DNA from: an uncultured Clostridia bacterium
GTDB lineage: Bacteria; Bacillota; Clostridia; Saccharofermentanales; Fastidiosipilaceae
Length of the DNA stretch: 45,170 nt
NCBI GenBank assembly: GCA_947253135.1
Contig: CAMXYS010000001.1
Coordinates: 1 to 45,170, forward strand
Direction of reading: 5' to 3'
The position numbers and the translations under genes are program-made. Of this stretch, positions 3,542 through 31,712 are shown piece after piece (the first letter of the stretch is position 1; the number at the start of each line of letters is the position of its first letter). The notes beneath the pieces are model-generated. The model did not search any database, had not been told where the DNA came from, and saw only the letters and a program-made list of their open reading frames with translations.

Positions 3542-4503
3542 TGTTTAAAGTAATCTACGATGGTGAACTCGAAGCTAAGGCTCACAAGGATGTTTTCGGT
3601 GATACATTGGCAGAGTTGGCCGCTGCCGATCAGGATGTTGTATATCTCGACGCCGACTTGATGAACTCTTCCGGCACCTACAAGTTTTGGCAGGCCAATC
3701 CCGGCCGCGCCATCAACTGCGGTATTTCTGAAGCTAACATGATGGGTGTGGCAGCCGGTCTGTCCGCTATGGGTAAAAAGCCTTTCGCCCATACCTTTGG
3801 TCCCTTTGCTTCAAGGCGTTGCTATGATCAGGTCTTCCTGTCCATCGGCTACGCGGGTAATCACGCTGTCGTCTACGGTTCTGACGCCGGTGTGACCGCC
3901 GGCTTTAACGGTGGTACCCATATGCCTTTTGAGGATATGGCCCTCTATCGGGCGATCCCCCATGCGACGGTTTTAGAACCTGCGGACGGTGTGGCTCTGA
4001 AGAAGTTGCTGAAACTCGCTAACAATGCCAAGGGTCTAGTTTATATCCGCAGTACCCGTAAAAATTACAAGAAGATCTATGACGAGACTTCTGAATTTGA
4101 AATCGGCAAGGGTCATGTCATCCGTGACGGCAAGGATGCGACGATTATTGCTTCCGGCCTGATGGTGGGCGAGGCCATGACAGCTGCTGAGACTTTGGCC
4201 GGCAAGGGCATCGAGGTCCGCGTGATCGACATGTACTCAATTAAGCCCCTCGATTCGGACCTGGTCCTGAAAGCTGCTGACGAGACCGGCGCTGTCATCA
4301 CAGCCGAAAACCACAACATTATCGGTGGTTTGGGTGATGCTGTAGCTGCTGTTCTGGCAGAAAATAAGGCTGTCTCTTTCAAGAAGGTCGGCGTTGAAGA
4401 TGAATTCGGCCAGGTTGGTCCGCAAGATTATCTGCAAGAGGTCTACGGCTTGACCGCTGACCACTTGGTTAAGGCAGTTGAAGAGACCATTGCCAAGAAG
4501 TAA
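3541..4503 (+). CDS. Transketolase, C-terminal (pyrimidine-binding + C-terminal domain) subunit
   Basis: ISEANMMGVAAGLS, HTFGPFASRRCYDQ, GGTHMPFEDMALYRAIP. Typical split-transketolase second subunit. Confidence 0.9.
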   Translation: MFKVIYDGELEAKAHKDVFGDTLAELAAADQDVVYLDADLMNSSGTYKFWQANPGRAINCGISEANMMGVAAGLSAMGKKPFAHTFGPFASRRCYDQVFLSIGYAGNHAVVYGSDAGVTAGFNGGTHMPFEDMALYRAIPHATVLEPADGVALKKLLKLANNAKGLVYIRSTRKNYKKIYDETSEFEIGKGHVIRDGKDATIIASGLMVGEAMTAAETLAGKGIEVRVIDMYSIKPLDSDLVLKAADETGAVITAENHNIIGGLGDAVAAVLAENKAVSFKKVGVEDEFGQVGPQDYLQEVYGLTADHLVKAVEETIAKK

Positions 4504-4640: not shown

Positions 4641-4952
4641 TTAAGAATATAAAACGCTGATTGAATCAAAGATCTCGCCCATGCTTTTTCCATCAATAAC
4701 TTTGGCGGCTAAAAAGTTATCAATATTTTCATTTGCATCTTTATTGCTTGCTTCATAAAGCAACTCACACTTTACGGCCGGCTGACCATCAGCTTGATAG
4801 GCTCCCCAATCATAAAGTGACAAAGAATGCGTATTCATGGGCTCTTGTATCCATCCGGAATTTAAGGATAAAAAATTCCCCTGATACAAGATCTCCATGT
4901 CGACACCGTAGTAGAGTTTGTCGTAAAACTCCTTAAAAGAAATATTTGCCAT
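4641..4952 (-). CDS. Small hypothetical protein (103 aa), third gene of cassette 1; immunity/antitoxin-like by position
   Basis: AGGGGG SD upstream, and its start lies 2 nt after the upstream stop. Shares EFYDKLYYGVD...GW and GKS...E..I with the 91-aa protein at 6133..6408. I recognise no known domain. Confidence 0.6.
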   Translation of the reverse strand: MANISFKEFYDKLYYGVDMEILYQGNFLSLNSGWIQEPMNTHSLSLYDWGAYQADGQPAVKCELLYEASNKDANENIDNFLAAKVIDGKSMGEIFDSISVLYS

Positions 4953-4954
4953 CT

Positions 4955-5326
4955 TTAGAGCCCCCTAAAATACTTTTTGTACTTTTTGAATTCTTCTTCG
5001 GTCAGAAGTCTTCCTGAACGGTCACGACTTAAATTTGAATAAAAATGGATATGAAGGACAGGTCCGTGATGCCCTGCCAATTTAGGTTCTTTGTGGTAGT
5101 CAATATCAAACTTTGCTGTTTTATCAGCATTATATTCACGATAACGCTTAAATTTCCCCTCGTGATCCAGCAAAATATAAGCTCTGCTGGAATGCGCTTC
5201 TTCCGGTAGATTGATGGAGTCCTTTTTATTTAACTTTTCTAGAACTTTTACACCCTCGATTATATCAACTGTTTCGTAGGTAAAGGGAGCATAATTATCA
5301 GCGGCATAGGTTCCCCGTCCACCCAT
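4955..5326 (-). CDS. Small hypothetical protein (123 aa) with conserved N-terminus MGGRGTYAADNY, EEAHSSRAYI and an LHxH motif; toxin-like by context
   Basis: Its start overlaps the DUF4417-like stop (TAATG at 5324..5328). It is a paralogue of 6401..6781, with 29 of the first 31 residues identical and a divergent middle. YKKYFRG is conserved at the C-terminus. Confidence 0.6.
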   Translation of the reverse strand: MGGRGTYAADNYAPFTYETVDIIEGVKVLEKLNKKDSINLPEEAHSSRAYILLDHEGKFKRYREYNADKTAKFDIDYHKEPKLAGHHGPVLHIHFYSNLSRDRSGRLLTEEEFKKYKKYFRGL

Positions 5327-5952
5327 TATCTCACCACCTTTCGGCTGGACATATAATCCACTGTAACTAAGTTACCCTCCATTTCTTTGAAGGGCTTGCC
5401 AAAACAAATAATGGCAGCTGGATTGATTTTTTCTAACATGACTTGATAGCCACGTAAAAAGGGAAGTCGATTGGCTTTTTTTGCACCAATCATGCCCACT
5501 GCTACGATGGAGCCTTCCTCTACGCCATCAAAACAAAAATCAAAGCTTCGAGTGTCACCCCAACTAATAGAGGGGATGACTGTAGCACCTTGTGCTTGCC
5601 ACCAAGCCCCACACCAGCGATTTTTGGCAACATTTTCTAGCTGTCGCCACAAATCCATATCTGCATAAAGAGAAAAGTCAGGACTTAGAAGAAAGGTGTA
5701 TTGAGCATAGCGTGCCCAAGTTCTATTTGGATTATCATAGATCCCCTTAAAACGGTAGTCGTCAACAAAAAAGTGAACGCCTTTTTTTGTATGGATAGGA
5801 AGGTCATTCTTTTTTGTATCTGAACAAGCGATTAACTCGATCGGCTGCAATTCGATGGCTTGTTTATGAATGAGTGGCAGCTCATATTTGCCACTTTTAG
5901 TAAATTGATTTCTCATAAAAAGCGGATTTCTCCGCATGTCTGCACTTGTCAT
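5326..5952 (-). CDS. DUF4417-like protein (208 aa)
   Basis: HFFVDDYRF, LLSPDFSLYADMDLW, NRWCGAWWQAQGATVIPSISWGD..SFDFCFDG match my memory of the DUF4417 family consensus (DDY and PDFS motifs). AGGAGG SD at 5959..5964, 6 nt before ATG 5952. Confidence 0.65.
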   Translation of the reverse strand: MTSADMRRNPLFMRNQFTKSGKYELPLIHKQAIELQPIELIACSDTKKNDLPIHTKKGVHFFVDDYRFKGIYDNPNRTWARYAQYTFLLSPDFSLYADMDLWRQLENVAKNRWCGAWWQAQGATVIPSISWGDTRSFDFCFDGVEEGSIVAVGMIGAKKANRLPFLRGYQVMLEKINPAAIICFGKPFKEMEGNLVTVDYMSSRKVVR

Positions 5953-6089
5953 ATAGCGCCTCCTAAAAGCTTAAAGTTTTTTGTCGGATGTGCTACCATG
6001 ACCTTGCAGACGTGCGATAGCACATATGTGATAGCCTCTAATTTGTTGCCGCAAATTTGAGGCTTTAATTTTTTACTAAAAATATTGAA
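5943..6089. repeat. Direct repeat copy A (147 bp, identical to 6867..7013): 5' end of the DUF4417 gene plus leader/promoter-proximal region
   Basis: Base-by-base comparison shows 147/147 identity at an offset of 924 bp. Similarity continues with mismatches to about 5923 and 6098. Confidence 0.95.
6016..6063 (-). promoter_or_regulatory. Operator-like palindrome CACATATGTG (6021..6030, flanked by GATAGC direct repeats) and a hairpin with 12-nt arms (6034..6045 / 6052..6063, 11 of 12 paired) in the cassette leader; duplicated at 6940..6987
   Basis: Read directly from the sequence. It sits between the putative -10 (6079..6084) and the SD (5959..5964) on the minus strand. Confidence 0.4.
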
Positions 6090-6107
6090 CCGCCTATTTT
6101 AAGTCAA
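6079..6107 (-). promoter_or_regulatory. Putative sigma70-type promoter of cassette 1 (-35 TTGACT, 17-nt spacer, -10 TATTTT)
   Basis: On the minus strand TTGACT is 6107..6102 and TATTTT is 6084..6079. The -35 lies just outside the 147-bp repeat, so cassette 2 shares only the -10. Confidence 0.35.
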
Positions 6108-6132
6108 ATCAGAATTCATTGAGAATCCGACC

Positions 6133-6408
6133 TCAAGAATCGACCCATTCAATTTGGCCTTCTACCTGATAAAAGGATTTACCGGCAAAAAATTGCCCTT
6201 GTATAAAGGCGTCTACGCATTCAAGTCTATCTAAACTTGAATAATGCCAAACCGGAATGGATAAATTGCTTATATTAGTGAGCTCAATCGTGTATAGATC
6301 ATTCTTACACCAACCTTGAAGCAGATATTTATCGCCATTAAAGTAAAACCATAGATCTGTTCCGTAGTATAAGCTGTCAATAAAGTCGCCCGTATTTCCA
6401 TTAATCAT
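6133..6408 (-). CDS. Small hypothetical protein (91 aa), third gene of cassette 2; divergent paralogue of 4641..4952
   Basis: GAGGAGGG SD upstream, and an 8-nt overlap with the upstream gene. Shared DFIDSLYYGTD...GW motif. Confidence 0.55.
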   Translation of the reverse strand: MINGNTGDFIDSLYYGTDLWFYFNGDKYLLQGWCKNDLYTIELTNISNLSIPVWHYSSLDRLECVDAFIQGQFFAGKSFYQVEGQIEWVDS

Positions 6409-6781
6409 GGCACCCTCCTCTAAAATATTTTTGATATCTTTGATATAATCTCGATTTTTTCTTTATGGCAATAGCCGGTGATCGATTAAAAAACTCATCG
6501 TAAATGTGGTAATGAAGTATATTTTTTCGGCTTAAATCTAAGTTTGGTTCGGGGTGGTAAGCAATTTCAAGTCTTAAATATTTATTTGAATCATAAATTC
6601 TAATCTGGTGAAAGCTGCCATCCCGCTTTAATTTAATGTAGGCTCTGCTAGAATGTGCTTCTTCCGGTAGAGAATGCTTCCCGTCCAGGCCTTCCAGCAC
6701 TTTTACACCCTCGATTATATCAACTGTTTCATAGGTAAAGGGGACATAGTTGTCAGCAGCATAAGTTCCTCGTCCGCCCAT
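6401..6781 (-). CDS. Small hypothetical protein (126 aa), paralogue of 4955..5326 (MGGRGTYAADNY..., EEAHSSRAYI, LHYH, YQKYFRG)
   Basis: The same N-terminal 31 aa (29 identical) and the same TAATG coupling to the upstream reading frame. Confidence 0.6.
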   Translation of the reverse strand: MGGRGTYAADNYVPFTYETVDIIEGVKVLEGLDGKHSLPEEAHSSRAYIKLKRDGSFHQIRIYDSNKYLRLEIAYHPEPNLDLSRKNILHYHIYDEFFNRSPAIAIKKKSRLYQRYQKYFRGGCHD

Positions 6782-6876
6782 TATCTCACCACCTTTCGGC
6801 TGGCCATATATCGACCGGTAGTAAAGCAGTTTTTCTTTTTGGGGAACGGATTTCTCCGCAAGTTTTCACTTGTCAT
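6781..6876 (-). pseudogene. DUF4417 remnant: 31-codon in-frame deletion derivative (MTSENLRRNPFPKKKNCFTTGRYMASRKVVR*)
   Basis: Hand translation of the reverse complement. It keeps the N-terminus (MTS..RRNP) and C-terminus (YM.SRKVVR*) of the 208-aa protein. The homology offsets on either side (924 vs 1455) differ by 531 nt, which is 177 codons. The SD and the TAATG coupling are retained. Confidence 0.8.
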
Positions 6877-7013
6877 ATAGCGCCTCCTAAAAGCTTAAAG
6901 TTTTTTGTCGGATGTGCTACCATGACCTTGCAGACGTGCGATAGCACATATGTGATAGCCTCTAATTTGTTGCCGCAAATTTGAGGCTTTAATTTTTTAC
7001 TAAAAATATTGAA
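6867..7013. repeat. Direct repeat copy B (147 bp, identical to 5943..6089)
   Basis: See copy A. Confidence 0.95.
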
Positions 7014-7253
7014 TCACCTACTTTCTATTTCGATTTAATAACATGTGACAACACAATATAAGCATGAGAACAACATGTAGTCAAGTTAAAAGCACAATAT
7101 ATTGTGATCTGACGAGCTAGAAAGAACAACTTATTATGCTTCCTTCTAAAAGCCAAACAAGAATTCATCAAGAATTGATCTACTCATTTTGATCTTTCAT
7201 TCGCCAAGTATGGATATAATAAGTAAAAAGACGGCCTATAGGGGGGAATTAAG

Positions 7254-8060
7254 TTGGCTGACCGGATGACAGAAACAATCATCAAGAGTAAGCGACGCGT
7301 GCAAAAGCATGGCGAAGTTTTTACGCCTAAATGGATGGTAAACCGTATGCTTAATGAGCCCGGTATTAAGGAGGCCTGCCAAGACCCGGGAGCCCGCTTT
7401 TTGGAACCGGCAGCCGGCGAAGGGGCCTTTCTGAGGCAAATTTTGAAGCGTAAGCTCAAAGCGGTGACGGACCGGATCCAGGTCGGTCAGATAGACCAAG
7501 CCCCGCCTTCTTTTGAACAAATAGAAGGGCACCTGCTGCTAGCACTTTCGTCGCTTTATGGAATTGAATTGTTAGAAGACAATGCCCGCCAATGTGCCAT
7601 CAATCTTTTTTATAGCTTTACCAGAGCCTACGAAGCATATGCCAAGGCACAAGGTAGAAAAACGAGACCCGGCGTGCTTAAAAGTGCCCAATTTATCATC
7701 TCTAAAAATATAATGGAAGGTGATTTTTTAAAGAGGTCAAAGACAGATGGTCAAGCCATTATCTTTAGTGAATGGGAACCTTTACCGTCAGACCCAAAGC
7801 GCCGTCACCTTTATGTACAAAGGACGGAGTACAGCCTACAAGAGATTTATGACGGGCTTAAGTTGTCTCCCGGCCGCATCTACTGTGGCGAAACACCGGA
7901 GTCACCTAAGCAAATTTCCATCTTCGATTTATTAGCTCCATCAGCAGGGACTGAACAGGAGGTAATACCCGCGGAGCCGCTTGTAAGATACCAAGTTTGC
8001 CGAATTGACCGCGTCTATTTAGAGAAAGTTGAGGAAGTCCATGGACAAGACCTTAATTAG
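7254..8060 (+). CDS. Methyltransferase-fold protein (268 aa) with motif X and SAM motif I but no (D/N)PP(Y/F/W) catalytic motif
   Basis: GEVFTPKWMVNRML (motif X-like), FLEPAAGEGAFL (motif I), LYGIELLEDNARQCAINL (motif II-like), NIMEGDFL (motif III-like). Where FDxxxGNPPY is expected the sequence reads AIIFSEWEPL. TTG start at 7254, 7 nt after GGGGGG (an alternative ATG is at 7266). The 3' end overlaps the next gene by 20 nt. Confidence 0.7.
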   Translation: MADRMTETIIKSKRRVQKHGEVFTPKWMVNRMLNEPGIKEACQDPGARFLEPAAGEGAFLRQILKRKLKAVTDRIQVGQIDQAPPSFEQIEGHLLLALSSLYGIELLEDNARQCAINLFYSFTRAYEAYAKAQGRKTRPGVLKSAQFIISKNIMEGDFLKRSKTDGQAIIFSEWEPLPSDPKRRHLYVQRTEYSLQEIYDGLKLSPGRIYCGETPESPKQISIFDLLAPSAGTEQEVIPAEPLVRYQVCRIDRVYLEKVEEVHGQDLN

Positions 8061-11000
8061 GCCCTTCGAGCAAAGAGATTTAAAAATTTATGGCTACACC
8101 CTGCCGGAAGTGCCTAGCCATGACGGTTACATCAAGATTGGGGAGACCGGCCGTGATGTTAGGCAAAGAATTTTGGAACAGGTAGGGACTGCCGGTTTGA
8201 CGCCTGACATCCGCTTTCAAAGACGGGCACAAAAGGCCAATGGGGAATGGTTTCATGACAAGGATTTGCACCGCTACCTGATCGCCAGAGGCAAGCGCCG
8301 GGCAAATTTTGGCACGAGGGCGGACGAGTGGTTCTATTTTAACGGTGAGATCGACCAGGCTGAAGTTTATACGGATGACTTTATCGCTACAGGTGCAGCC
8401 ACACAGCAGCAAATCAGCCAAGATGAACGACTGGATTATACCCTGCGCCAAGAGCAGGCGATTGCGGTAGAGCAAACTTTTGCCTATTGGCAAACTCATA
8501 CGGCTGACCGGGAATTCTTGTGGAATGCTAAGCCCCGCTTTGGCAAAACATTAACGACTTATGATTTTATGCTTAAGATCGGGGCAAGAACGACCTTGAT
8601 CGTGACCAACCGGCCGGCTATTGCCAATTCCTGGTATGACGACTTCAGAAAATTTATCGGCTGGAAACAAGAAAAACGTCAATATTATTTTGTTTCCGGC
8701 ATGGAGGAGCTAATCCGAGCTGGGGCCCTCACTTATGAACAGTATATAGAAGTTATTCCCCAGATTGGCGAGGCTGATATCGGGTTGGTGGTTTTCCTTT
8801 CTTTACAGGATTTGAAGGGGGCTAAATTTGCCGGCGGCCCTTATGAAAAATTGGGCTGGGTGGCTGATTTTAAATGGGATCTCCTAGTGATTGACGAGGC
8901 CCATGAAGGGGTGGACACAGCCAAGACGGACCAAGCTTTCGACCGTATTGTAAGGGACTTTACTCTCCACTTGTCCGGCACGCCCTTCAAGGCCTTAGCG
9001 AATGAAAAATTTCAGGCGGACCAGATTTATAATTGGTCCTACTTGGACGAACAAAAGGCCAAGCAAGACTGGGATCCGACCCTTGATACCAACCCCTATG
9101 CACCCTTGCCTGCTTTAAGTCTTTTTACCTACCAGATGGGCAATTTGATTACAGACCGGATGCAGTCGGCCGCCCATACAGAAGAGGGGAATATCGATTT
9201 TACCTTTGACTTAAATGAATTTTTCAGGACAGATGAGCAGGGAAGCTTTGCCCATGAGGAGGCGGTCAAGTGTTTTTTAGACCGACTGACGAGTGGCCGG
9301 ATGCCTTTTTCGCCGACTGAATATTTACATGAATTAAACCATACTTTTTGGCTTTTGCCCCGGGTTGCAGCCTGCAAGGCAATGGAAAAGCTTTTACATA
9401 GGCACCCCGTCTTTAAGGACTATCAGACTGTCTTGGCAGCCGGAGATGGTGAAAGTTTGGCAGGGCCCTTGATAGAAGGTGAGGTCCTGCCCAGTGAGGT
9501 TGAGCAGGCCAAGCGAACCAGCAGCAGCTATGCCAAGGTAAAAGAAGCCATTAAAAACTGTGAAAAGACCATCACCTTGTCAGTTTCTCAGTTGACAACC
9601 GGGGTCACAGTGCCGGAGTGGACAGCAGTTTTGATGCTCAGCAATATTCAGTCACCGGCCCTTTATTTCCAGGCGGCCTTCCGCGCCCAAAATCCCTATG
9701 AATATGAGAAAAATGGGAAGCTTTTCCGGAAGGAAAATGCCTATGTTTTTGACTTCGCACCGGAGCGGACGCTGCTATTGTTTGATGAATTTGCCAACAA
9801 TTTGACTCCGGTTTCTAGGCTTAATAATGGCAGTCGGCAGGACAATATTCGGGAGCTTTTAAACTTCTTCCCGGTGATCGCAGCAGATGAGGCCGGTTAC
9901 ATGGAGGAGTTGGATGCTGCGGCAGTGCTGACTATCCCTCGGCGTTTAAAGGCCCAAGAGGTGGTACGGCAGGGCTTTATGTCCAACCTCTTGTTCCAAA
10001 ATATTGCCGGTATTTTTGCGGCACCTGCTTTTATAAAGGAAATTTTAGACAAGGTTAAGCCGGAAGAAAACAAGAAGCAGGCTAAGGAAAAAAGACCTAC
10101 GCGGATTGCAGACCTGGAGTTAGACCGGCAGGGGCAGGTGGTGGTCGATCAAGGCATTGTCATCAATAAGAAGAAAGACTTTTTTGGTGATAAGCTATAT
10201 GAGGCAGTTGAGCTTTCGGCCACAGCTACAGAGCGAAAAATTGTGAGCCAATTGATGGAACAGACCAGGCTCGGCTTAGAGAAGATGGGCCAGGCGGAGG
10301 GTTGGAAAGGCCGGGAATTACAACAACGGGAGAAGTGGTTTAGGGACAAGGCTGCGGCGGTGGTGGCGGAGGCTGTGGACTCCTATCAGGCAGACTTGAC
10401 AGCGGTTCATGAGGACTACCGGCAGGCTCTGGCTGACGTCCACGAGACAAGGACGGAAGAGGAAATCCGAGCGGCCAGAAATGAAGGGGAGGAGCGTGCT
10501 CGGCTAATACGGGATGAGGTTATTTTGGCCAGGGTGGAAGCTCTGCCTGAGGAATTGATTAAACGCGAAGAAGTCCGCAAGGAAGAAAAGAAGAAAAGGG
10601 ACAGTGAGGCGGATGTCAGAGACCACCTGCGTGGCTTTACCCGGTCTATACCGGCCTTTTTGATGGCCTATGGAAGTCCAGAAACCCGGTTAGCGACTTT
10701 CGAGCAAGGAATTGATCCGGCTACTTTTGAAGAAACGACCGGTATCAGCCTGGAAGAGTTTGAGCTTTTGCGAGATGGCTGCAATTTTGAAGATGAAGAA
10801 GGTAACCTCCAAGTCTTCAAGGGCTTTTTTGATGAATTAATCTTTGACCGCAGCATAGAGGAGTTTTTTCGTAAAAAGGAAGAACTGGCCGACTATTTTG
10901 ATGAGAATTTGATGGAGGATATCTTTGACTATATTCCGGAGCAAAAGACAAATCAGATTTATACACCTCGGGCAGTTGTTCGCCTGATGGCAGATGCTTT

Positions 11001-12369
11001 GGAAGAAGAAAATCCCGGTATCTTTTCAGATCCAAACCGAACCTTTGTCGACCTTTATACAAAGAGTGGACTTTATTTAACAGAGCTGGTAAAGCGGTTA
11101 AATGAGGGGCTGAAGAAAAAAATCCCGAACCGGTTTGACCGGATCCGTCATATTTTAGAAAAGCAGGTCTATGGATTGGCACCCAGCAATATTATCTACA
11201 ATATTGCAAGAAATTATGTCTATGGGATCCATGACAGTGTGGATATCAGTAACTTAGTCGAGTGGGACATGGCTCGGTCGGCCAAGGAAGAAAGTATGAT
11301 AGAAGACTTGCCCCAGGCCTTTGGAGGAAAAGAGATGAAGTTTGATGTGGTGATTGGCAATCCACCCTACCAGGAGGAGATGAAAGGAACGAGTGATCGC
11401 CCAATATATCCGGAGTTTATGGAGGGAGCTTATAGCTTAGCAGATAAGGTCATCCTTATAACGCCGGGACGATTCTTATTTAATGCTGGTAAAACAAGTA
11501 AGCAATGGAATCAAAAAATGCTCCACGATGAGCATTTAAAAGTGATTTTTTATGAACAAAAAAGTGGCAAAGTCTTTCCTAATACAGATATCAAGGGCGG
11601 GGTGACAGTTACCTATCGAGATGCAAACCAAAAATTTGGGGCAATTGAGGTTTTTTCAGCGCATCAAGAGTTGAACAATATTTTACACAAGGTACTTGAG
11701 TTAGGTGAGGAAAGTTTTAGCAGTTTAGTTTATTCACCTGAAAGTTATAAACTTACTAATCAACTCCATAAGGATTTTCCGGAAGTTGAGGGAAGACTTA
11801 GCAAAGGTCATAAGTATGATGTTACAACCAATATCTTCGAGAAATTGCCGGAGTTTTTTTTAGATGAGGTAGAAGATGAGAACGGTTATGTACGGATTTA
11901 CGGCCGTGAAAACAATTTAAGGCTTAGCAAATATATAAAGGAAGAATATATTAGCGGCCCAGAAAATTTTAAACACTACAAGATTTTTGTTCCTAAGTCT
12001 AATGGGTCAGGGGCAATTGGTGAAAGACTTAGTACGCCGCTTCTCGGCCCGCCGCTTCTCGGCCCGCCGCTTCTCGGCCATACCCAGACCTTCTTGAGCA
12101 TTGGCAATTTTGAAAATGAGAATGAAGCTGTGGCGTGTTTGAAGTACGTAAAAACGTGTTTTTGCCGCGTTATGTTGGGAGTCCTGAAGGTAACCCAAGA
12201 CAATAAAAAATCAACTTGGAAGTATGTCCCCTTGCAAGATTTTACTTCTAACTCTGATATCGACTGGTCTAAATCCGTTGCTGAGATCGACCGGCAACTG
12301 TACGCTAAATATAAGCTATCAGCTGATGAGATAGACTTTATCGAGACCAACGTCCAGCCAATGGAATAA
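8041..12369 (+). CDS. Multidomain protein (1442 aa from ATG 8041): GIY-YIG/T5orf172-like module, SF2 (ResIII/DEAH) ATPase, charged coiled-coil linker, Eco57I-like N6-adenine DNA methyltransferase and a C-terminal specificity-like region
   Basis: Residues are numbered from the ORF-track start 8029. KIYGY...GYIKIGETGRDVRQRILEQ...EWFYF at about aa 18-105. Helicase motif I PRFGKT (GKT codons from 8542), motif II DEAH (from 8893), SGTPF, and QAAFRAQNP (motif VI-like). A KE-rich segment at about aa 680-870. IYTPRAVVRLM (motif X), FVDLYTKSGLYL (motif I-like), GNPPYQ (NPPY = 11359..11370). GAGGA SD at 8031..8035 favours ATG 8041 over the track's TTG 8029. Confidence 0.85.
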   Translation: MDKTLIRPFEQRDLKIYGYTLPEVPSHDGYIKIGETGRDVRQRILEQVGTAGLTPDIRFQRRAQKANGEWFHDKDLHRYLIARGKRRANFGTRADEWFYFNGEIDQAEVYTDDFIATGAATQQQISQDERLDYTLRQEQAIAVEQTFAYWQTHTADREFLWNAKPRFGKTLTTYDFMLKIGARTTLIVTNRPAIANSWYDDFRKFIGWKQEKRQYYFVSGMEELIRAGALTYEQYIEVIPQIGEADIGLVVFLSLQDLKGAKFAGGPYEKLGWVADFKWDLLVIDEAHEGVDTAKTDQAFDRIVRDFTLHLSGTPFKALANEKFQADQIYNWSYLDEQKAKQDWDPTLDTNPYAPLPALSLFTYQMGNLITDRMQSAAHTEEGNIDFTFDLNEFFRTDEQGSFAHEEAVKCFLDRLTSGRMPFSPTEYLHELNHTFWLLPRVAACKAMEKLLHRHPVFKDYQTVLAAGDGESLAGPLIEGEVLPSEVEQAKRTSSSYAKVKEAIKNCEKTITLSVSQLTTGVTVPEWTAVLMLSNIQSPALYFQAAFRAQNPYEYEKNGKLFRKENAYVFDFAPERTLLLFDEFANNLTPVSRLNNGSRQDNIRELLNFFPVIAADEAGYMEELDAAAVLTIPRRLKAQEVVRQGFMSNLLFQNIAGIFAAPAFIKEILDKVKPEENKKQAKEKRPTRIADLELDRQGQVVVDQGIVINKKKDFFGDKLYEAVELSATATERKIVSQLMEQTRLGLEKMGQAEGWKGRELQQREKWFRDKAAAVVAEAVDSYQADLTAVHEDYRQALADVHETRTEEEIRAARNEGEERARLIRDEVILARVEALPEELIKREEVRKEEKKKRDSEADVRDHLRGFTRSIPAFLMAYGSPETRLATFEQGIDPATFEETTGISLEEFELLRDGCNFEDEEGNLQVFKGFFDELIFDRSIEEFFRKKEELADYFDENLMEDIFDYIPEQKTNQIYTPRAVVRLMADALEEENPGIFSDPNRTFVDLYTKSGLYLTELVKRLNEGLKKKIPNRFDRIRHILEKQVYGLAPSNIIYNIARNYVYGIHDSVDISNLVEWDMARSAKEESMIEDLPQAFGGKEMKFDVVIGNPPYQEEMKGTSDRPIYPEFMEGAYSLADKVILITPGRFLFNAGKTSKQWNQKMLHDEHLKVIFYEQKSGKVFPNTDIKGGVTVTYRDANQKFGAIEVFSAHQELNNILHKVLELGEESFSSLVYSPESYKLTNQLHKDFPEVEGRLSKGHKYDVTTNIFEKLPEFFLDEVEDENGYVRIYGRENNLRLSKYIKEEYISGPENFKHYKIFVPKSNGSGAIGERLSTPLLGPPLLGPPLLGHTQTFLSIGNFENENEAVACLKYVKTCFCRVMLGVLKVTQDNKKSTWKYVPLQDFTSNSDIDWSKSVAEIDRQLYAKYKLSADEIDFIETNVQPME
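12035..12079 (+). repeat. Perfect 3 x 15-bp in-frame tandem repeat (CGCCGCTTCTCGGCC) encoding (P)LLGPPLLGPPLLG inside the C-terminal region of the fusion protein
   Basis: Counted base by base: the units are 12035..12049, 12050..12064 and 12065..12079, all identical. Confidence 0.95.
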
Positions 12370-12497
12370 GTTTTATGGGCCGGGTGGGCGCGGTCGGCTT
12401 TAGCCGGCCAAGGCCGCCCGGTCATAATGGACTTAGGGAGTTCTGCGAATCGGACTGCCAATGCAACTTTGCTCGACAAGCAACAAGGAGAGATTAA

Positions 12498-13955
12498 ATG
12501 GAGACAAAGGACCTGATTGATAGTTTCGATCCCTATGAACTTGCTAGCCGCAAAGAAGGGCAAACCTTTGAGCGGAAGAGCGCTCGGAAAAAACCAAAGG
12601 ATATTGCGCCTACTATTATCGCCTTTGCCAATACTGACGGTGGTGTTCTGGCCATTGGTATTGAAGATGACAGCACTTTGTCGGGCACCTCTTTTCAAGG
12701 TGCTTATACTTTAGATGACTATAAGGCCGCCATTAATAGTAATATTAAGGACCTACCGAATCTAGGATTCCATACGATCCCTTTTAAAGGAAAAGGATTG
12801 GAAGATAAAACTGATTATATTTATGTTATTACGGTCGAACTGTCGCGAAAACGAGTGGTGGCAGATGTGAGTGGGAAGGTATTTCTTCGCATTGGGGATA
12901 AAAGTCTGGTTCAGTCGCCGGCCCAAGTACAGCGTCTACAGTATGCTAAAGGTGAGCGCTTATATGAAGATAAAATAATAGACGAAGCATCTATTAAAGA
13001 TCTCGACACAGAATTACTTAATCGATACAAAAAACATAACAAGGCGGAGCAGTTGAGTGATGAACAAGTTCTTTCAGCTCGCGGGTTCATTCGTGACGGA
13101 CACTTGACTGCTTCAGCAATATTGATGTTCGGGAATAATCCTTTCATTTATCTGCCCCAATGCCGGCTACGCTTCCTGCGTTACGAAGGCGGAACTAAAG
13201 AAACCGGTGCTCGGATGAACTTGGTAAAAGATATAAATATTGAAGGAGCTTTGCCGCATATGATACGTGAGGCAGAGCAGGTCATTAAAAGCCAGTTGAG
13301 AGAATTCCAATTTTTGGGAGAAGATGGCCGTTTTAAAATTGTTCCGGAATATCCTGAGTTCGCCTGGCTCGAAGGAGTGGTTAATGCTCTTGTTCATCGC
13401 GATTATTCAATAACGGGTGACTACATAAGAGTCAGCATGTACGATGACCGGTTGGAAATCTTCAGTCCGGGAGCTTTGCCGGATATTGTAACGATAAAAA
13501 ATATGCGTTATACCCGTTTTGCTAGAAATCCTAGAATTGCCCGAGCTTTATCAGAATTTGGCTGGGTGAGGGAACTCAATGAAGGTGTTAACCGCATTTA
13601 TGATGAAATGAATCAATTTTTCCTTAAAGACCCTATTTATAGTGAGCCTAACCGCCATTCGGTACAGTTGAAATTAGAGAACAACTATGTATTGCGCCAC
13701 CAGAGAATCAATGAGAAAATCGATGAATTGCAAGGGCAGTTGTCATCGGACGCATTTAGCCCTAATGAGCGAAAGATTTTAGCTTATCTCTATAGCAATG
13801 AAAGTATCAATGTGCAAAAGGCATCAGAATTAATTGCGATGAGTGCTCCCAGTGCCCGCAAAATATTACGAGAACTTCTCAAAAAAGAGGCCGTGCAGTG
13901 GTTTGGTAATTCCGCCCGCGATCCCAAGCAATTCTATACTTGGCCGAGCCGGTAG
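12498..13955 (+). CDS. AlbA_2 (Schlafen-like) + HATPase_c_4 (RecG-C-terminal-like) + C-terminal wHTH-like protein, 485 aa
   Basis: The N-terminus ESFDPYELASRKEGQTFERKSA...IIAFANTDGGVLAIGIEDD is typical of AlbA_2 domains. EGVVNALVHRDYSITGDYIRVSMYDDRLEIFSPGALP is typical of the family usually annotated 'ATP-dependent DNA helicase RecG-like / putative transcriptional regulator'. AAGGAGAG SD before ATG 12498. Confidence 0.8.
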   Translation: METKDLIDSFDPYELASRKEGQTFERKSARKKPKDIAPTIIAFANTDGGVLAIGIEDDSTLSGTSFQGAYTLDDYKAAINSNIKDLPNLGFHTIPFKGKGLEDKTDYIYVITVELSRKRVVADVSGKVFLRIGDKSLVQSPAQVQRLQYAKGERLYEDKIIDEASIKDLDTELLNRYKKHNKAEQLSDEQVLSARGFIRDGHLTASAILMFGNNPFIYLPQCRLRFLRYEGGTKETGARMNLVKDINIEGALPHMIREAEQVIKSQLREFQFLGEDGRFKIVPEYPEFAWLEGVVNALVHRDYSITGDYIRVSMYDDRLEIFSPGALPDIVTIKNMRYTRFARNPRIARALSEFGWVRELNEGVNRIYDEMNQFFLKDPIYSEPNRHSVQLKLENNYVLRHQRINEKIDELQGQLSSDAFSPNERKILAYLYSNESINVQKASELIAMSAPSARKILRELLKKEAVQWFGNSARDPKQFYTWPSR

Positions 13956-14442: not shown

Positions 14443-15396
14443 ATGACCTTGCGTAGCTTATACGACCCGATCGAACCCAATCAAACTGCCTTTTTAAATA
14501 GAGGCATCCACGAAATTTATTATGAAGAGTCCGGCAATCCAAAAGGGCATCCGGTTGTCTTTCTGCATGGGGGGCCGGGCTGTGGCACCGGCCCAACTGC
14601 CCGCCGCTTCTTCGACCCAAATTTTTATCGGATCATCCTATTTGACCAAAGAGGGTCAGGTCAGTCCAAGCCGCAGGCTTGCTTAGAGGACAACAACACA
14701 GAGGCTCTCATCTCAGATATGGATGCCATCCGTGAACTGTTGAATATAGACCGCTGGCTTGTTTTTGGCGGATCTTGGGGTTCGACCTTGGCCCTCTCTT
14801 ATGCCATTAAGCACCCGGACCGGGTGGTGGGCCTTATTCTAAGAGGGATTTTTTTAGGACGCCAAGAAGATATTGATTGGATTTACCAGGCCGGTGGGGC
14901 CGGCAATATTTTCCCGGAAGCCTTTGCCGCATATGCCTCCCAAATTCCGCCGGAGGAAAGAGGGGACTTAATCAAAGCCTATTACAAGCGGCTGACTTCA
15001 GCTGATCCGGACACGAAACTTACGGCTGCTAAGGCCTGGTCCGCCTGGGAAGGAGCCATCACCACCCTAAGGCCAAACCAAGACCAGACTGACGCTTTTA
15101 CACAGCCGGACTACGCCCTTAACATGGCCAGCATCGAATGCCACTTTTGGGTCAACCATATGTTTACTGATAATATGAACTATATCCTGGATCAAACCCA
15201 TATCATAGAAGCCATTCCAACCCATATTGTCCACGGGCGATATGATATGGATTGCCGGGTCATTGGGGCCTACCTTTTGGCGGCCAAACTCAGGCAGGTC
15301 ACTTTAGAGGTGCCGATCTGTGGACATTCTTCAACTGAACCGGAAATCATTGATTCGCTAGTCAGAGCGACAGACAAGTTCAAATCTCTGTTTTAG
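14443..15396 (+). CDS. pip: Proline iminopeptidase (alpha/beta hydrolase)
   Basis: VVFLHGGPGCG, the GGSWGSTLAL nucleophile elbow, and a length and C-terminal His region typical of prolyl aminopeptidase. Confidence 0.85.
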   Translation: MTLRSLYDPIEPNQTAFLNRGIHEIYYEESGNPKGHPVVFLHGGPGCGTGPTARRFFDPNFYRIILFDQRGSGQSKPQACLEDNNTEALISDMDAIRELLNIDRWLVFGGSWGSTLALSYAIKHPDRVVGLILRGIFLGRQEDIDWIYQAGGAGNIFPEAFAAYASQIPPEERGDLIKAYYKRLTSADPDTKLTAAKAWSAWEGAITTLRPNQDQTDAFTQPDYALNMASIECHFWVNHMFTDNMNYILDQTHIIEAIPTHIVHGRYDMDCRVIGAYLLAAKLRQVTLEVPICGHSSTEPEIIDSLVRATDKFKSLF

Positions 15397-30543: not shown

Positions 30544-31712
30544 TTAGCAGGCGCAATGGGCATGTCCTGCCCTGATTACTTTTCCTCGAAGAAGAATATT
30601 CTTCGCTGCGTTTAGATCAGCATTGGCTTCGTGCCCACAATTCACACAACAGAAGTGCTCTTGTGTGGTTCTGTTTTCTTTTGAAACATGACCACACACA
30701 GGGCAAGTCTGGCTCGTGTGTTTAGGGTCGACCAAGATTAACTGACCACCCTTAGCTTCTAGCTTATAGGCAAGTTGAGTCCTGAATAGCCCCCAACCCT
30801 GTCTTAGGATAGATCGGTTTAACCCGGCTTTCTGTCTCACATGAACACCAGGCTTTTCCTTAGTACCTCTTGCTGATTTAGACATTTGTTTCACCCTTAA
30901 ATCTTCCATATAGATTGTGCCGTGGCTCTTGGCTAATCCGGAAGATAGCTTATGAGTAAAGTCTAGCCTTGTGTTTCTTAGCTTACGGTGAAGCTTACTT
31001 AACTTGAGTTTTGTTTTCTCACGATTCTTTGATCCTTTCTTTTGACGGCATAGCTTTTGCTGTGTCCGCTTTATTTTCCTTTCGTTTCGTTCATATTGAT
31101 CTACCGGCGCATGATATACGTTACCGTCCGAACAGGCGGCAAAGATTTTAACACCAAGATCAATTCCAACTGCTGACTCGGTTTCTAAAACTGGATCAGG
31201 TGTTTCCTCAAAGGTGGTGAACACGATGTAGTAAGCATTTGCTTCCTTCGTTATTGTGACGTGGCGAACGACACCCTTTATGGCTCTGGATCGCTTAAAG
31301 CGTATCCAGCCGAGTTTAGGCAGTTTGACTCGCTTATTTCTCTCCTCAATGGAGAATCCTTGTGGAAAACGAATCGAGTCATTGATCCCTTTTATCTTCC
31401 AGTTTGGATAACCGGAAGCAGAAGGGTTAGCAAAGAAACGCTGAAAGGCAAAGTCTAAGTCTTTTATACCTTGTTGCAAAGTTTGAGAAGGTGACTGATT
31501 TAAAAACCAAAAGTTTGGATCATTCTTCCACTGAACAAGCCGTTTTATGTATCCATAGCATTCCATTTTTGTTCCGGAAACTCTTTATAGTCTTTGGACA
31601 TAGCAAGAGCCATATTTTGGACACAACGAACATTGCCCATATATTGATTGAGCAACTTCTTTTGCTTGCCTGTCGGCAACAATTTATACTTGTAACCTTT
31701 TGCCTTAATCAT
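30544..31712 (-). pseudogene. tnpB: TnpB (OrfB/IS1341-type RNA-guided nuclease), disrupted by a single frameshift
   Basis: MIKAKGYKYKLLPTGKQKKLLNQYMG... (31712..31545) continues in another frame as ...YGYIKRLVQWKN...LQQGIKDLDFAFQRFF (31566..30544). RuvC-like motifs GIDLGVK, IYMEDL, ANADLNAAKNI and the zinc finger CPVCGH..CVNCGH are intact. The frame change is at the A5 run (T5 on the plus strand, 31565..31569). Confidence 0.8.

Follow-up and report, generated by a model that had tools for sequence, protein, structure and literature searches.

Which genes of a restriction-like locus belong together, and what kind of enzyme would they make? The question is raised by a stretch of DNA of 45,170 nucleotides (nt) from an uncultured Clostridia bacterium of the Fastidiosipilaceae (GenBank assembly GCA_947253135.1, contig CAMXYS010000001.1, positions 1 to 45,170 of the forward strand), which at its full length is called the window here. 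Between positions 7254 and 13,955 it holds three open reading frames (ORFs) on the same strand, referred to as genes 1, 2, and 3, of which the first two overlap by 20 nt (8041-8060) and the third follows after a structured spacer of 128 nt. An earlier note on this DNA, made from the sequence alone, had described this layout, with which ORF coordinates and folding agree, and had taken the three linked genes for a restriction-modification (RM)-like defence locus that could be mapped onto no known system.

The interpretation as an RM-like locus is right. The conserved unit is, however, two genes and not three. Genes 1 and 2 form a tightly coupled, defence-type module, which is a variant of the Type ISP-like kind and not a categorically new system. 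We consider it rather probable that the two genes together encode a two-subunit, ATP-dependent RM system working in a Type ISP-like manner.

Pairing of genes 1 and 2, and the separate gene 3

The pairing was followed in 80 loci of gene 2 fetched from many phyla, in which gene 1 was sought by profile. A gene 1 homologue adjoins gene 2 in 70 of them: it lies upstream in 43 (mostly overlapping or a few nt away), lies downstream in 10 (in Bacteroidota, Saccharibacteria, and Bifidobacterium), and is fused in frame in 17. In the other 10 the flanking sequence is missing on the side that matters, and no informative locus is without an adjacent or fused gene 1. The three relatives closest to gene 2 (61-63% identity) keep gene 1 with the same 20-nt overlap. 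Gene 1 is likewise adjacent in 41 of 44 further loci, some of them on plasmid or viral contigs and some from relatives of only 30% identity.

In the fused form the first ORF (about 630 amino acids, aa) comprises gene 1, the T5orf172 domain, and the first RecA lobe, the latter two corresponding to about the N-terminal third of gene 2, and the second ORF (1084 aa) comprises the second RecA lobe, the methylase, and the target-recognition domain (TRD). For example, the two ORFs of the Streptococcus mitis locus L044 are found at 6140..8023 and 8020..11274. The split falls between the RecA lobes, in a loop that is of low confidence in the structural model of gene 2. Because gene 1 is fused there in other lineages, its protein is considered to be physically part of the enzyme, at the nuclease/motor end. 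The fused architecture occurs in streptococci, Enterococcus moraviensis, Macrococcus, Veillonella, and others (loci L035, L037, L039, L042-L047, L056, L058, L060, L064-L066, L070, L074, and L078); in L039 a 316-aa ORF (8158..9108) is inserted between the two halves.

When all ORFs within 4 kb of gene 2 were clustered across the 80 loci, no third conserved gene emerged, only clade-specific synteny (e.g., Streptococcus core genes) and a DUF1016-like insert in five loci, and for this reason the three-gene model is rejected. The insert, at 7653-8702 in L068 and in four other loci with a downstream gene 1, separates gene 2 from gene 1 by an ORF of about 349 aa. It presumably resembles the nuclease genes of the DUF1016/YhcG type, which are frequent inside Type I restriction operons.

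Gene 3 was correctly recognized in the earlier note as a protein with AlbA_2, HATPase_c_4, and helix-turn-helix parts: Pfam finds SLFN_AlbA_2, HATPase_c_4, and a C-terminal winged helix, HTH_24 (E 1e-17, 2e-19, and 1e-4, respectively), and the protein fits the class of AlbA_2/Schlafen-like proteins with HATPase_c_4 and a winged helix. It matches 3lmm in the PDB (E 2e-11) and PHROG 12156 (E 1e-94). Its proposed linkage to the other two genes did not hold up, whereas that between genes 1 and 2 did, in every informative locus and with 17 fusions. Of the 80 loci only 2 yield a homologue of gene 3 by tblastn, one lying upstream on the opposite strand and the other a partial match about 4 kb downstream, and none is present in the three closest gene 2 relatives; gene 3 is therefore rejected as a component of the system. 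Its relatives occur in different surroundings: alone amid transporter genes in Aerococcus; in an integrative element of Enterococcus faecium (L088-L090), beside a reverse-transcriptase gene and an integrase; and in Moraxella (L091-L093) beside a different protein of about 1080 aa with Eco57I and Type_ISP_C domains, in a satellite-like element that also holds DUF3987 and KilA-N genes. This distribution suggests an independent defence-island gene that is often a neighbour of Eco57I-type enzymes. In the window, gene 3 is a separate cargo gene tending toward the same kind of island and lies outside the conserved module.

The gene 1-gene 2 family is widespread and apparently uncharacterised. Close relatives of gene 2 number thousands, and at least 526 matched stretches in a one-genome-per-species collection of bacteria and archaea encode one. 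The pair is found on 92 plasmid records, 39 of them from Enterococcus, and on 40 viral or prophage contigs. The plasmids include conjugative and mobilizable ones, and 46 of the 92 matches are to non-mobilizable plasmids. For example, the E. faecium plasmid pDY28-optrA (L085, NZ_MW207670.1) carries the pair at 5262-10371, one case of enterococcal plasmids on which the pair accompanies optrA and erm(A). The family is thus abundant and plasmid-borne in clinically relevant enterococci. These plasmid relatives emerged by protein search, the locus itself giving no match to plasmids by megablast. Many other copies are chromosomal and lie between core genes, as in Streptococcus. In the locus of one close relative (L082, 2492-3958) an ApeA-type gene (HEPN_Apea) stands directly upstream of the pair, which points to a defence-island context.

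Domains of the large protein and of its methylase-fold partner

Gene 2 had been described as a single polypeptide combining a nuclease, a superfamily 2 (SF2) ATPase, and an NPPY methylase, and this description is borne out by Pfam matches and by motifs that are invariant among 32 full-length relatives from Bacillota, Bacteroidota, Saccharibacteria, Actinomycetota, Planctomycetota, and others (Table 1). The N-terminal nuclease-like domain is matched by T5orf172 with 19.9 bits (E 1e-3; cut-off 20), and 5 of 27 relatives match the same model at E <= 0.01. In this domain K32, G34, R43, H77, E96, and W97 are invariant, and Y17 and Y19 are at least 85% conserved. The motor is matched by ResIII at residues 133-316 and by SNF2-rel_dom, and its motifs AKPRFGKT, DEAH, SGTP, QLTTGVT, and QAAFRxQNP are invariant. 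The linker that follows is modelled as long helices (731-867) and is little conserved (0.26-0.32).

The methylase domain is matched by N6_Mtase/Eco57I at residues 968-1179 (Eco57I E 3e-20). Its motif X is QIYTP, and GNPPY (1106-1110) is invariant. Motif I is atypical, F-V-D-L-Y-T-K-S-G-L-Y as compared with I-I-D-P-S-A-G-S-G-T-F in the alignment with BsaXI, and D1004, K1008, S1009, and G1010 of this motif are conserved family-wide. Downstream of the methylase, residues 1200-1320 are variable, as is expected of a specificity or target-recognition domain. The C-terminal end is matched by the PADLOC models PDLC03626 and PDLC03375, the former, REase_MTase_IIG, with E 1.3e-46 and its best stretch at residues 1077-1440, approximately the last 365. 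A search of residues 1150-1442 with Pfam Type_ISP_C gave no match even at E <= 10; the same model is on record for other proteins in precomputed annotations.

Within the C-terminal part of gene 2 the 15-nt unit CGCCGCTTCTCGGCC is perfectly repeated three times in tandem. A public metagenome contig (L081) that is otherwise identical to the window locus, including the gene 2 product, has two copies, which is the family norm (P-x-x-G-x-P-x-x-G). The difference is a copy-number polymorphism that keeps the frame and adjoins TQTF, a conserved motif of the C-terminal domain.

By sequence, the gene 2 profile finds nothing in the PDB. The AlphaFold model, which covers residues 1-1200 with a mean predicted local distance difference test (pLDDT) of 71, has as its top PDB matches in Foldseek the Type ISP enzymes LlaBIII (4xqk) and LlaGI (5ffj), with E 1e-12 to 5e-12, and is collinear with both across about 1180-1255 alignment columns. 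Further matches are to CamA and DrdV in the methylase part and to Chd1 and SNF2h in the motor. The earlier claim that the locus fits no known system is contradicted by this collinearity and by the Type IIG model of PADLOC. Collinear helicase-methylase proteins of comparable size that match the model are also found among viral entries of BFVD: A0A1X7C005 (1336 aa, E 4e-28), A0A1V0SG34 of Hokovirus, a giant virus (1324 aa, E 2e-23), and A0A6J5KT33 of an uncultured phage (1138 aa).

Gene 1 has no match in Pfam, and methyltransferase models of PADLOC, PHROGs, and NCBIfam match its residues ~4-120 only, with residues 4-76 covered by models of PADLOC and PHROGs. It had been described as a methyltransferase-fold protein that keeps the S-adenosylmethionine (SAM) motif and lacks NPPY, and this is corroborated by aligning 33 members of the family, which share 44-49% identity with the protein of the window. 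Invariant or nearly so are motifs X (H-G-E-V-F-T-P), I (E-P-x-x-G-E-G-x-F-L), II (Y-G-x-E-L-x-x-D-N), and III (G-x-F-L). The position of NPPY after the fourth strand is occupied by F-S-E-W, of which F, E, and W are invariant and S is present in about 90% of the members; an NPPY-like motif is absent from the gene 1 part of every member of the 70-locus set. The C-terminus of the protein is acidic.

Since gene 1 finds nothing in the PDB by sequence, the informative comparison is that of the fold. The AlphaFold model is confident (pLDDT 84), and in Foldseek it matches best, though only in part, the methylase domains of LlaGI, LlaBIII, MmeI, and CamA (probability 0.93-1.0, template modelling (TM) score ~0.3). 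Compared by profile (hhalign), gene 1 and the methylase domain of gene 2 give 92% probability in a local alignment that is reliable only over motifs X and I and was for this reason not used to place motif IV of gene 1. Gene 1 is thus a conserved methylase-fold protein without the catalytic tetrapeptide. Its protein has probably retained SAM binding, and the invariance of the SAM motifs and of the S-E-W motif argues that it is under selection. Databases label it "N-6 DNA methylase", and in precomputed Pfam annotations a few of its homologues carry PF20473, which we take to be the MmeI methylase domain. In annotation, gene 1 should not be counted as an active methylase, nor gene 3 as part of the system.

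Table 1. Features of the locus and of the gene 2 product, in window coordinates.
Feature	Position	Strand	Description
Gene 1	7254..8060	+	268 aa from TTG start; 253 aa in the public gene call (start 15 codons later)
Gene 2	8041..12369	+	1442 aa; ATG with GAGGAAG ribosome-binding site ahead
Gene 2, residues 1-120	8041..8400	+	T5orf172 (GIY-YIG superfamily) nuclease-like domain
Gene 2, residues ~133-660	8437..10020	+	SNF2-like SF2 ATPase with two RecA lobes
Gene 2, residues ~720-870	10198..10650	+	Long E/K-rich helical linker in coupler position
Gene 2, residues ~960-1200	10918..11640	+	Gamma-class N6-adenine methyltransferase domain
Gene 2, residues ~1200-1442	11638..12369	+	Target-recognition region; core 1200-1320 variable, C-terminal end conserved
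Tandem repeat CGCCGCTTCTCGGCC x3	12035..12079	+	Perfect 15-nt repeat encoding PLLGP x3 inside gene 2
Spacer between genes 2 and 3	12370-12497		128 nt
G+C-rich hairpin	12378-12423	+	~20 bp; directly 3' of the gene 2 stop, at the start of the spacer
Gene 3	12498..13955	+	485 aa

Proposed mode of action and its alternatives

How might such a pair work? The variable C-terminal region of the large protein would, together with the NPPY methylase domain, read a short and probably asymmetric site in which one adenine is methylated, and this adenine methylation would mark the DNA of the host. At an unmethylated site the SNF2-like motor would be activated and pull the DNA through, and the N-terminal T5orf172/GIY-YIG-type domain would cut away from the site, probably upon collision of two enzymes or upon stalling. 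That the N-terminal domain may cut is consistent with parts of the work on phage ICP1 and the PLE satellite, in which T5orf172 domains are reported as nuclease domains (PMC8263062; PMC8096241).

The gene 1 protein would be an obligate partner in this reaction, most likely docked on the nuclease/motor end of the gene 2 protein. Because its SAM motifs are invariant, NPPY is lost, and it is fused to the nuclease end, a role as structural or SAM-dependent regulatory subunit, and not as a second methylase, is proposed. A different role was considered, in which gene 1 provides the SAM-binding half of a split methylase and so complements the odd motif I of gene 2. It is rejected as the main model, since the methylase fold of gene 2 is complete in itself and gene 1, where fused, stands at the other end of the protein.

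Carried further, the regulatory role would make the family a class of its own, very widespread, of translocating RM enzymes in which a GIY-YIG-type cutter is combined with a pseudo-methyltransferase of intact SAM pocket (S-E-W for NPPY) that gates the nuclease/motor via SAM or the methylation state. This we consider possible, if rather doubtful. Such a gating subunit could couple restriction to the SAM supply or could detect a phage counter-defence that degrades SAM.

Several points weigh against a restricting, Type ISP-like enzyme. The nuclease of Type ISP enzymes is an Mrr-type PD-(D/E)xK domain, whereas that of gene 2 is T5orf172/GIY-YIG-like, and the T5orf172 score of the window protein falls just below the Pfam cut-off. 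SAM binding by the gene 2 methylase is not assured because motif I reads K-S-G instead of G-x-G. The structural model is only moderate, with low confidence at 358-441 and 468-527, and the global TM-scores in Foldseek are about 0.2 because the domain arrangement differs. A literature search, which did not cover REBASE, found no paper on the gene 1-gene 2 family or on the small partner; REBASE may list these genes as putative Type IIG. Finally, the DnmA-YeeB-YeeC system of Bacillus subtilis, which is the closest described split analogue, gave methylation and neither restriction nor protection from phage (PMC9973331).

The result with B. subtilis would be accounted for, and carried over to the pair, if the latter were a modification-only or relic system that methylates DNA to epigenetic or other ends and whose nuclease-like and motor domains have lost the ability to restrict; the scanned ORFs of the window include no separate classical endonuclease, which accords with this. 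We nevertheless consider it unlikely, since the motifs of the nuclease-like domain and of the ATPase do not vary across phyla, which points to purifying selection on these activities, the pair has spread on plasmids and prophage-like contigs with a variable specificity region, and the DnmA and YeeB homologues of Vibrio crassostreae do affect phage sensitivity (PMC9973331). Quite unlikely, too, is an exclusion of foreign DNA without classical cleavage, by a self/non-self sorting as in BREX or DISARM, with T5orf172 mainly binding or nicking DNA. In favour of it, GIY-YIG domains possess a single active site and frequently nick, and the methylase is related in fold to enzymes of the BrxX type. The T5orf172 domain is moreover largely uncharacterised, with predicted functions related to DNA binding (PMC9973331). 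Neither PglZ, BrxC/L, nor Drm genes are nearby, however, the 80 loci have no third conserved gene, and the GIY-YIG-type catalytic residues are conserved.

The occurrence of the pair on conjugative and mobilizable plasmids and on viral contigs, together with the collinear helicase-methylase proteins of phages and giant viruses, might also indicate an anti-restriction or self-protection device of mobile elements that shields incoming plasmid or phage DNA, like DarB of phage P1. A protective methylase would not be expected to have a conserved nuclease-like domain and a specificity region that is hypervariable, half of the plasmid matches (46 of 92) are to non-mobilizable plasmids, and many copies are chromosomal between core genes, so that we regard this as very unlikely. 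Least probable appears to be one three-component defence system of genes 1, 2, and 3 with the Schlafen-like ATPase as sensor or effector. The rarity of gene 3 at the other loci and its solitary relatives in unrelated neighbourhoods oppose it, as does the strong hairpin between genes 2 and 3, against which can be set the common strand, the gap of only 128 nt, the Moraxella relative that also adjoins an Eco57I/Type_ISP_C protein, and the fact that the domains of gene 3 are known fused to prokaryotic Argonaute (pAgo; PADLOC).

If the two-subunit RM system does restrict DNA, phage infection and the transfer of genes would meet an overlooked barrier in enterococci, streptococci, listeriae, staphylococci, and many further bacteria, and the family would offer sequence-specific adenine methylases from a new source. 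Restriction enzymes do not usually have a methylase-like subunit that is both obligate and catalytically dead, and what a protein with only a SAM pocket does in a nuclease-motor complex is a question that can be tested. Should its role be regulatory, the pair would be the first RM enzyme built on an active and an inactive methylase fold, with the dead one as regulatory partner.

Genomic setting and comparison with known systems

The low-GC stretch that holds the locus is flanked by a transketolase gene ending at 4503 and an alpha/beta-hydrolase gene starting at 14443. A Pfam scan of 30 neighbouring and larger ORFs of the window, which are housekeeping genes and one TnpB, finds no restriction or modification domain. 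The spacer between genes 2 and 3 folds with -55.7 kcal/mol as compared with -41.2 ± 3.6 for shuffled sequences (z = -4.0; 0 of 200 shuffles as good). Its hairpin is probably the end of the gene 1-gene 2 operon; we infer a terminator there only tentatively, because no U tract follows the hairpin and the terminator scan makes no call at this place.

Just upstream of the locus, in the same low-GC stretch, five small ORFs are found on the minus strand (4641-6781). One of them (5326..5952, 208 aa) is a DUF4417 protein with a match to phrog_940 (E 2e-48), a phage "nuclease" family; no family matches the other four, and PADLOC matches none of the five. The toxin-like cassettes that the earlier note saw beside the locus are not corroborated by these matches. 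The TnpB-type gene (30544-31566, minus strand, 340 aa; OrfB_IS605 and a Cas12f1-like TNB domain) is located in a local GC dip amid housekeeping genes. A tRNA scan of the window gave no tRNA and no attachment-site clue for the island.

With which known systems is the pair to be compared? Neither a separate HsdS nor a Mod/Res pair, as in Type I and Type III systems, is found among the neighbouring and larger window ORFs scanned, and PADLOC and Pfam find no PglZ, BrxC, BrxL, or DrmA/B/C of BREX and DISARM in the locus or its neighbours. With Type IIG/IIL enzymes (Eco57I, MmeI, DrdV, BsaXI) gene 2 shares the fused restriction-methylase polypeptide and the methylase family, DrdV and BsaXI matching its methylase part by structure or sequence. 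These enzymes differ in having no ATPase motor, a PD-(D/E)xK nuclease, and cutting at a fixed distance, whereas in gene 2 about 530 residues of SF2 ATPase stand between nuclease and methylase.

The combination of an NPPY-competent methylase (gene 2) with a related methylase fold lacking the catalytic motif (gene 1) resembles METTL3-METTL14 and the Type III Mod dimer, whose protomers divide the work, one reading and the other methylating. This likeness may be taken as an analogy, the fusions placing gene 1 at the nuclease/motor end and not at the methylase domain.

The DnmA (YeeA)-YeeB-YeeC system of B. subtilis and V. crassostreae has in common with the pair an N6-adenine methylase, an SF2 helicase, and a T5orf172 domain, and also its occurrence in defence islands and mobile contexts (PMC9973331). 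It differs in that the three are encoded by separate genes in the order methylase, helicase, T5orf172, whereas in gene 2 all are fused in the reverse order. Compared by description, the methylase of DnmA is MmeI-like and that of gene 2 of the Eco57I type, and only the window system has the additional pseudo-methylase gene.

Closest are the Type ISP enzymes LlaGI and LlaBIII, single polypeptides with the same order of nuclease, SF2 ATPase, linker, gamma-class N6-adenine methylase, and specificity region, although in 17 of the 80 loci the gene 2 polypeptide is split between the RecA lobes. Type ISP enzymes translocate from an asymmetric site driven by ATP and cleave at head-to-head sites upon collision; of such a motor gene 2 has the intact ATPase motifs. 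Differences are the motor of gene 2, which is closest to SNF2, the nuclease, the Type_ISP_C specificity domain, which Pfam does not detect in gene 2, and the subunits: a Type ISP enzyme consists of one polypeptide with no accessory subunit, whereas the window family always has the methylase-like gene 1. Like the window family, Type ISP enzymes are plasmid-borne, in lactic acid bacteria, and the existence of related enzymes that combine helicase parts with GIY-YIG nucleases was remarked upon already in 2012 (PMC3553950). The architecture of the pair is thus that of a Type ISP-like enzyme in which the nuclease has been swapped and to which an obligate pseudo-methyltransferase subunit has been added.

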